Made by a program: the position numbers and the translations under genes
Assembly (NCBI GenBank): GCA_963842525.1
Contig: CAWJGT010000003.1
Location: forward strand, 576,001-640,000
Source: an uncultured Holophagales bacterium
GTDB taxonomy: Bacteria; Acidobacteriota; Thermoanaerobaculia; Multivoradales; UBA5704
Direction: 5' to 3'
Length of the DNA stretch: 64,000 nucleotides
In this document: positions 1,491 through 36,600 of the stretch, piece after piece
Position numbering within the stretch: position 1 is the stretch's first letter
How the letters are laid out: the number at the start of each line of letters is the position of its first letter
The notes under the pieces: model-generated
Database searches by the model: none
What the model was told of the DNA's origin: nothing
What the model saw: the letters and a program-made list of their open reading frames with translations, nothing else

Positions 1491-4400
1491 GCCTCCCGCG
1501 GCGACGCGACGAGAGGCGGCGCGAGCGACCCCGCGCGAGGCCCTTGCAGCCGCTCGACGGCGGCGGCGAGGCCGGCGATCGTGGGGCTCTCGAAGAAGTC
1601 GGGGAGAGGCAGGTCGATCTCGAAGCGGCGGCGCACCCGGGTGAGGACCTGGATGGCGGACAGGGAGTGACCCCCGAGAGCGAAGAAGTCGTGGCCGGTG
1701 CCGAGGCCGGACCGGCCCAGCACCTCTTCCCAGATCTCCACCAAAACCGCCTCGGTTGCTGTGGCCGGAACGACGGGGGCCGCGCCGGCGGCGAGGGCCA
1801 TCTCGGGCTCGGGCAGGGCCTTGCGGTCGATCTTGCCGTTGGCGGACAGCGGCAGGGCGGAGAGGAAGACGAAGGTGTCCGGGATCATGTAGCCGGGAAG
1901 CGAGCGGGCCAGGTGCTCCTGGAGCGCGGCAGTCGAGATGATGTCTCCGGCCTCCCCCGCGGCCACCACATAGGCGCACAGGGTCTTCTGCCCGGTCCGG
2001 TCGCCGCGGGCCAGCACCACTGCCTCCCGCACGCCGGGAGCCCGGGAGAGCTGGCTCTCGATCTCGCCGAGCTCGATGCGGAACCCGCGGACCTTGACCT
2101 GGTGGTCGCTGCGGCCGAGAAACTCGATTTCGCCCTGCGGCAGCATCCGCCCCAGGTCGCCGGTGCGGTAGAGGCGGCGGCCGGGCCCTGCGAAGGGATC
2201 GGGCAGATAGGAGGCCGCGGTCTTCTCGGGGTCTCCGGCATAGCCGCGGGCCACGCCTTCGCCGCCGATGTAGAGCTCGCCCACCACCCCGGGGGGAACC
2301 AGCTCCAGAGAGCGATCCAGGAGGTAGAAGGTGTTGTTGTCCAGCGGCCGGCCGTAGGGGATGCTGAGCCAGGCCTCGTCGATCCAGTCGACGGGATGGA
2401 AGATGGACCAGACCGTGGCCTCGGTGGCGCCGCCCAGGCTGATCACGCGCAGGTTGGGGAAGAACCGCCGGGCGCGTTCGGGGAGCGTGAGCGGGATCCA
2501 GTCTCCGCTCAGGAAGGCGAGGCGGAGGTCCTCGCCGCGGAAGCCCGGATCGGTCTCCTCCAGGTACTGGACGAGCAGGCCGAGGGTCGAGGGAACCGAA
2601 TTCCAGAAGGTGATCCCATGCGCGCTGACCAGCCGCAGCAGGGCGGCCGGATCCTGTACCTCCTCCTGCCGCGCAAGCACCACCTCGCCGTCAGCCGCGA
2701 GGGTGCCGAAGAGATCGAAGACCGAGAGGTCGAAGCAGACGGAGGAGACCATCAGCACGCGGTCGCCGGGGCCGACGGCCATCTCGCGGTTGACCCACGC
2801 GATCAGGTTGGCGGCGCTGTGGTGCGCGATCATCACCCCCTTGGGGGTGCCGGTCGAGCCGGAGGTGTAGATGGTGTAGGCGAGGTCCTCGGGCCGGGGG
2901 CGTAGCGGCACGGGCGCGTCCTGGTAGGCGGTCAGATCCTCCGGCAGGTCCTCCAGTAGAAACGAGATTGCAGACTGCCGGGCGATGAAGCTCTTGCGGG
3001 CCGGCGGGTAGGAGGGCTCCAACGGGACGTAGGCGGCGCCCGCCTTGAGCACGCCGAAGAGCGCCGCGATCAGCTCGGGGGAGCGCTCCAGGCAGACTCC
3101 GACGTTGTCGCCGGGCTGCACGCCGCGCGCAAGGAGGAGCCGCGCCACCCGGTTGGCCAGGCGCTCGAGCTCGCCGTAGGAGAGCGAGCGGTCGCCGCAG
3201 CGGACGGCGGGGAGATCCGGATGGCGGGCGGCCTGCTCCTCGAAGAAGCTGTGGAGGGGCCTCTCGCGGGGGTAGGCGCGGGCCGTGTCGTTGTAGACCG
3301 CGACGAGCTGGCCGCGTTCCTCCGCGCTCAGCAGGGCTTCCGCGGCGAGCGGTGTATCGATCCCGCGGATCAGCGCCTCGAGGATCTGCCGGTAGAGGGC
3401 CAGCGCCAGCTCGATGTCCGCCTCCTCGAAGAAACGCGGGAGGTACTTGAGCTGCAGGAAGGGGCGGCTCTGCGTGGCCATGACCTCCAGGTCGAACAGG
3501 GTATTCGTCATCTCGTCGAGGCGCAGTTCGGGAAACACGCGCGCAACCTCCCCGGCCGACGCCTGGAAGAGGGCGTTGTCGCGGACTTCCTCGATGAGAT
3601 GGAAGTCCATGAAGTTGAGGAGCGTGTCGAAAATCGGATTCTGCGCCGACTCGCGGAGGCCGACGAGGCCGGCGATGTCCACCAGCGGGATCTCGTGCTC
3701 CTTCTCCTCGGCGAGGAAGCGCGCCACCCGCCGAGCCAGGGAGGCGCCGGTCTCCCCCGGCTCCAGACGGAGGCGGAGCGGAAAGGTATTGAGAAAGCAC
3801 CCGACGATCTTGTCGCCGTCGGGGATTCCCGGCCGGTCGTGGGAGACCACGCCGGTGATCACGTCCTCCTCGCCAGAGGTGACCCGCAGCAGGTGGAGGT
3901 GGGCCGCCAGGAAGAGCGCCTGGAGCGGCACGTGCAGCTCCGCGGCCCGCTCGCGCAGGCCGAGCAGCGTCTCGGGGGGCAGCGGCCGCTGGAGGGATCG
4001 CATGCCGAAGGCCGTGCGCTCCCGGGTCACCGCCCGTTGGAAGGGGAGCTTGTTGCGGCCGGCGCCGGCCAGGGTGGCGCGCCAGAAGGCCTCGGTCGCG
4101 GGCGAGCGGCTGCGGCCCAGCGTGATGGCCAGGTAGTCCTTGTAGCTGCTGGCCAGGGGCGGCAGGGCCTCGATCCGGTCGAGGTCCTCGCAGGCGAGGT
4201 CCTCGCGAGCGAGGAGCGCATTGAGATCGAGCCAGAAGGTCAGGTTGCTCCAGCCGTCGAGGATGGCGTGATGCCAGGTCCAGATCGTGGCGAAGGTGTC
4301 TCCCGCCAGCCGGAAGAGCTTGAGGCGCCAGAGGATCTCGCCCCGGAAGGCGAACCGGCGGCGCATGTCCTCGGCACGGTACCGCTCGATGCGCGCGCGC

Positions 4401-33600: not shown

Positions 33601-36600
33601 CCGGGAGAGGTCTGCGCGTGCTGGGGCAGGCTGGCGAGGACGGCCTCGAAGGGCACGTCCTGGTGGGAGTAGGCGCCGAGAGTGACCTCCCGCACCCGCG
33701 CCAGCAGACCGCGGAAACCGGGCTGGCCGCCGAGATCGGTGCGCAGGACCAGGGTGTTCAGGAAGCAGCCGATCAGGCCCTCGGTCGCGACGGCGCGGCG
33801 GCCGGCCACCGGCGCGCCGACCAGGACGTCGTCCTGGCCGCTGTGGCGGTGGAGCAGGGCCTGGATCGCGGCGAGCAGGGTCATGAACGGCGTGGCGCCG
33901 TGGGCTCCGGCCGAACGCGGTCAGGCGGCTCGCGAGATCGATGGGAAGCACGCGCGTGCTCTGCCGGCCGCGGTAGGTCTGCACGGCCGGGCGGGCCCGG
34001 TCGGTGGGCAGCTCCAGCGGAGAGACCTCACCGCCCAGCCGGTCCTGCCACCAGGCCAGCTCGCTCTGCCGGGACGCCGCGACCACCTCGCGCTGCCAGA
34101 CCGCGAAGTCGGCGTACTGGACCGGCAGCTCGGGGAGCGGCGAGCCGGCGTAGAGCGCCCCGGCCTCGCGCACGAGGAGGGGGAGCGACCAGCCGTCGCA
34201 GATGGTGTGGTGCAGCACGACCAGGAGACGGTGGCGGTCCGGCTCCAGCCGCAGGAGCACGGTATCGAGCAGGGGGCCGCGGGCCAGGTCGAAGCGGCGC
34301 AGGGCGTGCTCTCCCGCCAGCCGCTCCGCTTCAGCGAGGCGCCTGGCCGGCGGCAGCCCGGCGAGATCGAGCAGCGGCAGCCCGATGTCCAGCGCCGGCA
34401 GGATGTGCTGGCGGGGCTCGCCGTCGACCATGCGGAAGACCGTGCGCAGCACCTCGTGGCGGTCCACCACGCCGCCCAGGGCGGCGGAGAGGGCCGCCAC
34501 ATCGAGGCGGCCCGCGAGCTCGACCGCGCCCGGGACGTTGTAGGTGGGGGCTCCCGGCTCGAGCTGGTCGAGGAACCAGAGGCGCTCCTGGGCGAAGGAG
34601 AGGGGCGGATCTCCGGCCCGCGATGCCGGAACGATCGGAGGGAGGGGCGGAGCAGAGCGCCGCGCCGGTCCGCCGCGCCGCTTCGATCCGGGCCGCGAGG
34701 TCCGCTAGCGTCGGGCGCCTCGAAGAGGTCGCGCAGCGGCATCTCGACCCCGAACGCCTCGCGCAGGCGCGACATCACCTGCGTCGCCAGCAGCGAGTGG
34801 CCGCCCAGCTCGAAGAAGTGGTCGGTCGCCCCGACCCGTTCGACACCGAGCAGCTCGGCCCAGATCCCGGCGAGGATCTCCTCGGCCGGCGTCCGGGGCG
34901 CGAGGTAGCTTGCTTCGGCTCGCGGATCAGCTCGGGGGCTGGCAGCGCCTTGCGGTCCACCTTGCCGTTGGGGGTGAGGGGAAGGAGCGGCAAGGACCAT
35001 AAAGACGGCAGGGACCATGTAGTCCGGAAGGCGGTCGCGCAGGGCCTGGCGCAGGGTTTCGGCGGCGGCGTCGCCAGCCACGTAGGCCACCAGCCTGCCT
35101 TCCCGGACCACCGCCACGGCCTCGCGCACCCCGGCCAGGGCGGAGAGCGCCGCCTCGATCTCGCCCAGCTCGATGCGGAAGCCGCGGATCTTGACCTGGT
35201 GGTCGCGCCGCCCCAGGAACTCCAGGTTGCCGTCCGGCCGGTAGCGCGCCCGGTCGCCGGTGCGATAGAGGCGGGCTGGCTCGCCAGCGGGTCAGGAATG
35301 AATTTCTCCGCTGTCAGCTCCGGCTCCCGGGCGTAGCCGTCGGCCAGGCAGTCGCCGCCGATGTAGAGATCCCCCGGCACACCCATCGGGCAGGGGGCAA
35401 GCTGCGCGTCGAGCACGTGGTAGCGCGCATTGTCGATGGGCCGTCCGTACGGGATGCTCGGCCAGGCTGGATCGACCCTGTCGACGGGGAAGACGTTGGA
35501 CCAGACCGTGGCCTCCGTGGCGCCGCCCAGAGCCATCACCCGGGCGCCGGGGAAGCGTTCGCGGATGCGGTCGGGGAGGGTCACGGGAATCCAGTCACCG
35601 CTCAGGAAGACGAGGCGCAGGGCCGGTCTGGCCCTGCGGGTCGATGCCAGCCAGGAACGGCACGGTCTGCTCCAGGGCGGCCGGGGCCGAATCCCAGAAG
35701 GTGATGGGCTCTTCGAGCCAGCGACGCGCAGCAAGCGCTCGGGATCGCGGATCTCTTCCTCGGTCGCGATGCGGATCGAGCCGCCCGCCCCCAGCAGGCC
35801 GAAGACGTCGAAGACCGACAGGTCGAAGGAGAGGGAGGTGACGAAGAGCACCCGGTCGGCGGGGGAGAAGGCGAACGTCCGATGAGCCCAGCGGAGAAGA
35901 TTGACGACCGGGCGGTGGCGGACCATCACCCCCTTGGGCGTGCCGGTGGAGCCCGAGGTGAAGATGACGTAGGCGAGGTCGTCCGGGGGACCGGCGGGGC
36001 GTGATCGGCAGATCGGTCGGATCGGACCGATCGGTCCGATGAAATCGTCCACGCAGACCACGTGAGGCAGCGCCGTGCAGGTGCCGAGCTGCGCCGACTC
36101 GGTGATCAGGCAGGCGATCTCCAGCCTGCCGAGAATCCATTGCCGGCGCGCGGGTGGGTGGCCGATCTCCAGCGGCACATACGCGGCGCCGGCCTTGAGC
36201 ACGGCCAACAAGGCCGGGATCATGTGGAGCGAGCGGCGCAGGTGAAGGCCCACCAGCGAGCCGGGACCGACGCCGAGGCTCATCAGGTGGCGCGCCAGGC
36301 GGTTTGCCTGCGCTTCCAGCTCACCGTAGGTCATCGACTCATTTCCGCAGACGGCGGCGGTCGCGCCAGGGGTCCGCCGGGCCCACTCTTCGAACAGCTC
36401 GTGGATCAGGGTCTCTTCAGAGCGGTCCACCGCGGTATCGTTCCACTCCACCAGCACCTGGTGGCGCTCGACGGCCGGCAGCAACGGCAGCTCCGGCACG
36501 GGGCAGAGGGGGTCCGCGGCGATCCCGTCCAGGAGCGTCCGGAACTGGACCAGCAGGCGGTGGGCCGTGGCGGCATCGAAGATCGCGGTGTCGAATTCGA

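Follow-up and report, generated by a model that had tools for sequence, protein, structure and literature searches.

Cysteine-type adenylation domains paired with ordinary condensation domains in a predicted lipopeptide assembly line of an uncultured acidobacterium

When analysing a 64,000-nucleotide stretch of DNA from an uncultured Holophagales bacterium (the window, that is, the whole stretch at its full length: positions 576,001 to 640,000 of contig CAWJGT010000003.1, GenBank assembly GCA_963842525.1, or G000:C3:576001-640000, where G000 is the window's own genome and G001, G008, G031 and similar labels denote related genomes), we observed that one very long nonribosomal peptide synthetase (NRPS), encoded on the minus strand from ~50.3 kb leftwards, contains five adenylation (A) domains of the cysteine type that are all preceded by ordinary condensation (C) domains. 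Cysteine is the best call for the substrate of these domains, which belong to modules M4, M6, M8, M12 and M14, and we hold it with good confidence on the strength of sequence comparison; the explanation as a whole, namely, that these are cysteine domains of the kind represented by TioN and PchE, working behind ordinary C domains that would leave the side chain uncyclised, also appears likely. The first-pass annotation of this DNA had drawn attention to the aspartate that four of the five domains carry at position 278 (position 4 of the specificity code), and had offered two alternatives: several free thiols at alternating positions, or an acidic pocket that selects an analogue such as L-2,3-diaminopropionate (Dap).

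The domain map was made with phmmer, using the C, A and carrier (T) domains of the window's own M10 as queries against six-frame translations, and the module numbering of the first-pass annotation was kept. The map shows a fatty acyl-AMP ligase (FAAL) with a T domain, a starter C domain and then M1-M14; taken in whole, the line is fatty-acyl-primed and has ~19 modules, of which M15-M19 lie left of the window, to window coordinate ~-20314. The line and the five modules in question are as follows.

1..50315, continuing past the left window edge, minus strand: lipopeptide NRPS genes with FAAL-T, starter C and M1-M14 (phmmer domain map)
34710..37774, minus strand: module 4, C (HHIVSDGWS), A (34922-36385) and T; DLFDFSLVWK is read only across +2 and +1 indels near position 278
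28352..31443, minus strand: module 6, C (HHIAGDGWS), A (28581-30021; DLFDFSLVWK) and T; frameshifted
22080..25165, minus strand: module 8, C (HHIVSDGWS), A (22309-23767; DLFDFSLVWK) and T; frameshifted
7974..11126, minus strand: module 12, C (HHIVSDGWS), A (8208-9689; DLFDFSLVWK) and T; frame intact
1550..4666, minus strand: module 14, divergent C (HHAILDGWS), A (1802-3244; DLFNFSLVWK) and T; frame intact

The specificity codes were extracted via alignment to M10 and then verified on the printed local context. The same extraction yields, in neighbouring modules, codes that we take to be standard for alanine (DLFNNALTYK), glutamine (DAWQFGLID), glycine (DILQLGLVWK), asparagine (DLTKVGEVGK), serine (DVWHVSLVDK) and threonine (DFWNIGMVHK), so the register of the codes is sound. 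All five domains conform to the type DL(Y/F/W)(N/D)(L/F/M)SL(I/V)WK. The codes given by the first-pass annotation stand for M6, M8 and M12 (in the context FDLSVFD, ITFWDSAP, NGKVDR) and for M14 (ITFWNSVP), whereas the one given for M4 needs a qualification: it is present in the DNA, in another frame between the +2 and +1 indels, and the open frame has proline at position 278. The core motifs named there for the cysteine code were found in every one of the five domains, with LSGDWIP in place of the usual GGE motif, LGGATE in place of NxYGPTE, and FDLSVFD and (I)TFW(D/N)S besides; the lysine of motif A10 lies on a separate frame piece in both M6 and M8. The four D-type modules share 78-82% DNA identity and thus are diverged paralogues rather than assembly duplicates. 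When the literature was searched, no paper was found to contain DLFDFSLVWK, DLFNFSLVWK or any of four variants, and among six neighbouring codes only DLFNLSLIWK, the code of PchE, was matched; nothing bearing on DLFDFSLVWK was found in a paper on acidobacterial NRPS predictions (PMC12818350).

The C domains that precede the five A domains all have HHxxxDG, and none of them contains DxxxxD or has DxxxxDxxS in place of HHxxxDG, the signature of cyclization (Cy) domains; Cy domains are within reach of the script used, which detects DxxxxD ahead of six further cysteine-type A domains elsewhere in the genome. On this point, the reading of the first-pass annotation, that all partner C domains keep HHxxxDG and that Cy domains are missing, is borne out. 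The C domain of M14 (window 3608-4666, minus strand, WHHAILDGWSNLTFWL) is divergent: it scores only ~43-45 bits against the other C domains of the line, has a near twin before a DLYNFSLVWK A domain on contig C34, just upstream of 317319, and its histidine motif resembles the HHALLDGRS that a protein search returned from cyanobacterial C-A-T-TE proteins.

Phylogenetic analysis places the five domains with those that are paired with Cy domains. The genome has 309 A domains, and in a FastTree tree of the 214 full-length ones, which includes no characterised reference sequence, the five and all the other DL(Y/F/W)x(L/F/M)(S/G)L(I/V)W domains form a single clade of 17 members with a support of 0.975, which also contains six Cy-paired domains of the DLYNLSLIW type and is separate from the glycine, serine and alanine domains, as is also apparent from the ranking of identities. 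At position 278, the six Cy-paired members have asparagine in five cases and serine in one; the ten C-paired members have aspartate in seven, M4 included, and asparagine in three, and one fragment was left unscored. With stand-alone actinobacterial TioN-like proteins, the A domain of M12 shares 55-57% identity (residues ~125-485), compared with 47-51% for the Cy-paired cysteine domains encoded in the same genome and 41-48% for the glycine domains. In the related genome G001, the orthologous module 6 has the code DLFNFSLVWK in a domain that is 80% identical to M12, with asparagine in place of the aspartate of the window's module 6. The code of M14 is identical in 8 of 10 positions, and the D-type code in 7 of 10, to DLFNLSLIWK, the code of PchE, for which the complex with cysteinyl-AMP has been visualised (PMC8807600). 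PchE and other Cy-paired cysteine A domains, such as those of the pyochelin system and of bacillamide (BmdB), share the wider cysteine clade and its motifs with the window domains; unlike the latter, whose partners are C domains with HHxxxDG, they are Cy-paired, thiazoline-forming and have asparagine at position 278. Membership of the 17-member clade together with the Cy-paired domains, the closeness of M14 to the PchE code and the ordinary C partners favour the uncyclised-cysteine reading, and with it the first alternative of the first-pass annotation, at least so far as this can be predicted.

The aspartate itself turns out to be the usual residue in a known group of cysteine-activating domains. 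The 2020 survey of Lundy, Mori and Garneau-Tsodikova (PMC8341866) defines a family 3 in which a methyltransferase is located between motifs a2 and a3, with TioN as the type member, and its Fig. S16 aligns TioN with nine family-3 relatives; the invariant columns of this alignment read N.W..N..D.L..FDLSVYD..G.L..G..T.WDS.PA, LR.V..SGDW....LP and LGGATE...WSN. The invariant T.WDS.PA implies that TioN and its family have aspartate at position 278, the members' code being DLYD.SL.WK, and M12 matches every invariant column except that the tyrosine at position 239 is replaced by phenylalanine, as it is in the window domains generally. TioN has been described as adenylating and S-methylating L-cysteine (PMC11355689). 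TioN (thiocoraline), MarQ (maremycin) and related A2-Ms(S)-A3 proteins, with L-cysteine as the substrate, thus represent the same A-domain branch as the window domains, with FDLSV(Y/F)D, T.WDS.PA, SGDW and LGGATE..WSN in common; in contrast, the window domains lack the methyltransferase insert and reside within C-A-T modules of a long line, whereas TioN-type proteins are stand-alone loading enzymes.

Relatives of the M12 A domain, scanned in one genome per species, include domains with aspartate at position 278 far outside Acidobacteriota, namely, in Paenibacillus anaericanus (L059, DLYDFSLIWK) and in a metagenome-assembled genome of Bacillota (L058), both of which have a methyltransferase inserted between a2 and a3. 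According to PMC8341866, the motifs of the type IV, S-methylating methyltransferases are VLExGxGxG, D..(V/I)..AS..QF(F/L)P...Y and (E/V)L..R(Y/F)D; these fit the motifs VLEIGCGSG, DLILMASTVQFFP and ELAFRYD of the L059 insert, in which DLILMASTVQFFPGYLY is the counterpart of the second. Among the best 120 relatives from a protein search with the L059 domain, position 278, read within the context (I/V/L)T.(W/Y)xS.P that is present in 120 of 120, is aspartate (W-D-S) in 110 and asparagine (W-N-S) in 10; a regular expression identified the type IV insert in 64 of the 120, with aspartate in 57 and asparagine in 7 of these. Since an S-methyltransferase has no use without a thiol, and the insert occurs with either residue, both states evidently serve cysteine. 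It appears from these alignments that position 278 marks lineage rather than a change of substrate, aspartate being usual in the TioN-like branch and asparagine in the Cy-paired branch, and that the TioN-like branch of cysteine A domains can work either with C domains or alone. The view of the aspartate as a special variant in the first-pass annotation did not hold up: it is invariant in the ten TioN-family sequences, and its novelty is not supported, as a known family of cysteine-activating enzymes seems to have this residue as a rule.

As an observation in its own right, cysteine-type A domains with aspartate at position 278 and a type IV insert are common in Paenibacillaceae and Acidobacteriota, where they form part of complete C-A(M)A-T modules (L058, L059, L069; P0001-P0083). 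The 2020 survey (PMC8341866) describes family 3 as almost always stand-alone. Such modules predict S-methyl-cysteine residues in the respective products.

Several facts weigh against the cysteine reading. In this genome, aspartate at position 278 occurs with a Cy domain in none of six cases and with a C domain in seven of ten, a split that could reflect a difference of substrate. None of the five window domains has the methyltransferase insert (they align to M10 without insertion), which places the TioN-type interrupted architecture in L058, L059 and L069 and not in the window; moreover, the type of the a2-a3 methyltransferases is assigned by motifs alone, with only TioN and MarQ characterised, and the TioN residues are known here from the conserved columns of a machine-read PDF alignment (Fig. 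S16). A sequence search of PDB did not discriminate, with glycine, cysteine and valine domains all at 320-405 bits per domain. One could suppose that the domains with aspartate load some other small neutral residue (serine, alanine, glycine or a modified alanine), or are promiscuous, and resemble cysteine domains only by descent. The discrimination between cysteine and serine by A domains is not well understood (review PMC11253843), the closest solved structures by sequence include the glycine-type 5u89 (405 bits), which is as near as the cysteine domain of BmdB (400 bits), and the adenylation by MarQ is called 'flexible' in the title of its paper (as cited in PMC8341866). We nevertheless regard this possibility as improbable: serine, alanine and glycine have their own standard-looking codes within the same line (M13, M3 and M10, respectively), an S-methyltransferase insert within the same type of A domain makes sense only with a thiol, and every pocket residue occurs in PchE or in members of the TioN family. 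Nor does the code match a characterised domain for an ordinary non-thiol residue, and the partner C domains do not classify as Cy; the first-pass annotation would have counted either finding against itself.

The second alternative of that annotation, under which the four D278 domains would load Dap or another small cationic residue, the carboxylate pairing with the β-amine, and only M14 would load cysteine, implies an alternating cationic lipopeptide. Fatty-acyl-primed cationic peptides are common, aspartate is isosteric with asparagine but brings a charge into a pocket that is very small, and the genome can make Dap, as judged by an SbnA match of 388.6 bits against a cut-off of 349.95. Acids at code position 4 occur in diaminobutyrate and ornithine codes, according to PMC12042044, which distinguishes three modes of diamino-acid binding: by a glutamate in position 3 of the code, by acids in both position 4 and position 9, or by aspartates in positions 8 and 9. 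The D-type window domains, however, have phenylalanine, aspartate, valine and tryptophan at positions 3, 4, 8 and 9, respectively, so that the lone acid at position 4 fits none of the three modes; it is also the only feature shared with SulM A3 (DVWEMNADDK), which anchors Dap by the aspartates at positions 8 and 9, and with other diamino-acid A domains described in that paper. Furthermore, the aspartate is invariant in the TioN family and accompanies the type IV S-methyltransferase insert in the great majority of the insert-bearing relatives enumerated above; the G001 orthologue has asparagine at module 6; the window contains no gene of the SbnA or SbnB type, the adjacent pyridoxal phosphate (PLP) enzyme scoring 57 bits to SbnA against the cut-off of 350; and the genome has separate codes of the DIWEITADDK type, like that of SulM A3, one of them on contig C34, ~46 kb from SbnA. 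Taken together, these points make a Dap-loading function very improbable. The SbnA-family gene is at G000:C34:369617-370531 and the large NRPS with DIWEITADDK at C34:323689-325212, so a Dap-containing product is likely to come from this separate cluster.

Apart from the identity of the substrate, the integrity of the line in this genome is in question. The NRPS line changes frame ~25 times between 7.2 and 43 kb, most densely at 21-36 kb, where ~18 of the changes lie; the first-pass annotation makes no mention of them. The window's copy may therefore not function in this genome; it could be a decaying pseudogene that yields no product in this organism, whatever the substrate. The frame changes are all inside domains, and rpoB and rpoC are intact, which means that the assembly is not uniformly error-ridden. 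Nonetheless, all the pieces retain strong domain scores, core motifs and a third-position G+C content of ~0.8-0.9, unlike what long neutral decay would leave; internal frame changes affect 39 of the 309 A domains of the genome, across six contigs, as fits indel errors in the repetitive NRPS DNA of a metagenome assembly; in M4, the +2 and +1 indels compensate, leaving ~38 codons between them out of frame; and no frame breaks were seen in the orthologous line of G031, where one open frame of ~12,276 codons with the FAAL and ten modules is followed by a second frame, or in the examined parts of that of G001. A pseudogene thus appears rather unlikely, and assembly error in repetitive NRPS DNA is probably the cause of the frame changes. 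Among the sequencing runs, none contained more than 9% of the sampled words, and the contigs obtained from four runs were pieces of 70-350 bases, 90-95% alike, from NRPS genes of other organisms; one-base omissions in these contigs at 21410, 27564 and 31006/31009 coincide with frame changes of the window, which is at most a hint.

The positions of the cysteine-type modules are conserved in the orthologous lines, which have four or five such modules at 4, 6, 8, 12 and, variably, 14. Those of G031 are D-type modules at 4, 6, 8 and 12 of 13, G001 has four cysteine-type modules at the same positions, and the line of G000 has six modules more than that of G031, the N-type M14 among them. If the domains act as proposed, L-cysteine would be joined by a plain amide bond at each of the five modules, with the side chain not cyclised and the thiols, as we infer for cysteine loading itself, remaining free on the enzyme. 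At its end, left of the window, the line has KS-AT-ACP and a thioester-reductase domain (G000:C3:555683-560500, which is L137:5683-10500, minus strand), from which it follows that the peptide is extended by one ketide unit and is probably released as an aldehyde or alcohol. The predicted product, then, would be a fatty-acylated peptide of ~19 residues with cysteine at positions 4, 6, 8, 12 and 14, one KS-AT-ACP extension and reductase release.

Next to the start of the line are genes on the opposite strand, one of which bears on the possible fate of the thiols.

48374..50315 (47619-50315 in a wider delimitation), minus strand: fatty acyl-AMP ligase and carrier domain, which form the lipid starter (AMP-binding and PP-binding; the best NCBIfam matches are FAAL families)
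50439..51659, plus strand: VKOR-thioredoxin/DsbA fusion protein, encoded divergently to FAAL with 123 bp between the two genes (Pfam VKOR 68.9, Thioredoxin_4 61.6 and DSBA 59.1 bits)
51666..52631, plus strand: PLP enzyme of the Ser/Thr-dehydratase type or racemase-like, 7 bp after the VKOR-DsbA gene (below all NCBIfam cut-offs)

The second of these has the features of a VKOR-DsbA fusion oxidoreductase, and its cysteines are complete in the translation: C-x6-C in the loop, CGWC in the membrane and CPSC in the thioredoxin part. A head-to-head pair of an intact VKOR-DsbA gene and a FAAL gene is present in four genomes (G000; G001:C6; G008:C343, another genus; and G031:C157), and the gene that flanks VKOR-DsbA on its other side varies: in G000 it encodes the PLP enzyme, in G001 a further NRPS. 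Of the 31 related genomes, 10 have a VKOR match, which exceeds the cut-off in 9, and VKOR-DsbA is an accessory gene in this lineage. The ten full-length homologues that were examined comprise the four beside the FAAL line, one (G002:C52) located ~16 kb from six Cy-Cys modules, and five without a nearby NRPS. In the G002 region (G002:C52:36426-84966), the homologue, 52% identical, lies upstream of the six Cy-A modules, the codes of which are DLWNLSLIWK, DLYNLSLIWK and DLYSLSLIW.

Four cysteines in a conserved C-x-C-x-C-x3-C arrangement, encoded beside a disulfide-forming enzyme, suggest two disulfides or a metal-binding array of thiols. After export, the VKOR-DsbA protein, whose gene adjoins the line, would convert the thiols to disulfides. 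We put forward this disulfide step with considerable reservation, and more tentatively still the view that the family represented by G000, G001, G008 and G031 makes a fatty-acylated C-x-C-x-C...C peptide with two disulfides formed by VKOR-DsbA or, in the reduced state, with a metal-binding array similar to that of phytochelatins or metallothioneins. Several observations speak against disulfide formation by the neighbouring protein. Around five of the ten homologues, including the G003 copy that is 69% identical, the examined 8.8-80 kb contain no A domain of an NRPS, save for two A domains ~35 kb away in G010; the protein is the sole VKOR found in G000, where no Pfam match to DsbB was obtained, so that it may be the general oxidase of the cell; and five cysteines is an odd number. 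In one search of the literature, no paper that connects VKOR with an NRPS cluster was found, and no class of cysteine-rich nonribosomal peptides matured by the periplasmic protein-folding machinery turned up. The incorporation of cysteine via ordinary C domains, followed by oxidation, is not without parallel. In thiocoraline, triostin and romidepsin, cysteines that enter in this way are later oxidised by cytoplasmic dithiol oxidases dependent on flavin adenine dinucleotide, with the formation of one disulfide; here, in contrast, a membrane VKOR-DsbA fusion is encoded next to the line, and four or five cysteines would be present in the peptide.

The PLP enzyme was considered as an SbnA or CysK that supplies Dap or cysteine, and this was rejected, given that it is Ser/Thr-dehydratase-like and below every curated cut-off; it is not at the equivalent position in G001. 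In the line, the serine module M13 is followed by the divergent C domain of M14 without an epimerisation domain, for which reason a role of the PLP enzyme in the supply of D-serine is conceivable. Epimerisation domains (HHLVVDxVSW) are two in number, after M1 and after M16.

Another feature of the line is a split junction in module 11.

13242..15673, minus strand: split junction in module 11, with a C-terminal C domain at 14363-15673 (HHIAGDGWS), then the C-like domain of the next protein at 13242-14195 (PSLAADGVS)

Module 11 is thus divided over two proteins, the upstream one ending in an intact C domain and the next one opening with a C-like domain that lacks the histidine pair. The degenerate motif PAL(A/C)AD(G/A)(A/V)S is found at the equivalent junction in three other genomes (G001:C71, G008:C35 and G031:C157), and the C-like domain may be a conserved inactive docking domain.

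The G+C content of the window is 71%, and it falls to 0.58 at 56000-60000 compared with ~0.71 elsewhere; this stretch, which contains an open reading frame with a Schlafen/AlbA_2 domain at 57679-58635 on the minus strand, may be foreign or mobile DNA at the border of the cluster. Most of the open reading frames between 52.6 and 61 kb gave no match in Pfam. Further to the left, beyond the end of the line, there is a second NRPS, convergent with the main line and ending in a TE-DUF6625 fusion, with a gene for a MacB/FtsX permease between the two. The nearest named database records, which are metagenome-assembled genomes, carry the labels Thermoanaerobaculia, Holophagales or Acidobacteriota.

In kind, then, these modules are known, being cysteine modules with ordinary C domains and A domains of the TioN-type branch, whereas the family of acidobacterial lipopeptide clusters to which they belong is undescribed. 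For annotation, this means that aspartate at code position 4 in DL(Y/F)xxSLxWK should be taken to indicate cysteine, in the manner of the TioN branch, rather than a new or cationic substrate, a rule that touches the prediction of structures for many clusters of Acidobacteriota and Paenibacillaceae with this code. The cluster family, in which VKOR-DsbA is a conserved neighbour, predicts lipopeptides of 13 to 19 residues that contain four or five cysteines; it provides a case in which maturation by periplasmic oxidation, or else metal binding, could be tested for a nonribosomal peptide of an uncultured, NRPS-rich lineage. It is this neighbour, more interesting than the pocket residue, that is the part worth following up: should the disulfide or metal-array outcome be true, these products would represent a class of cysteine-rich nonribosomal peptides matured by the periplasmic protein-folding machinery.

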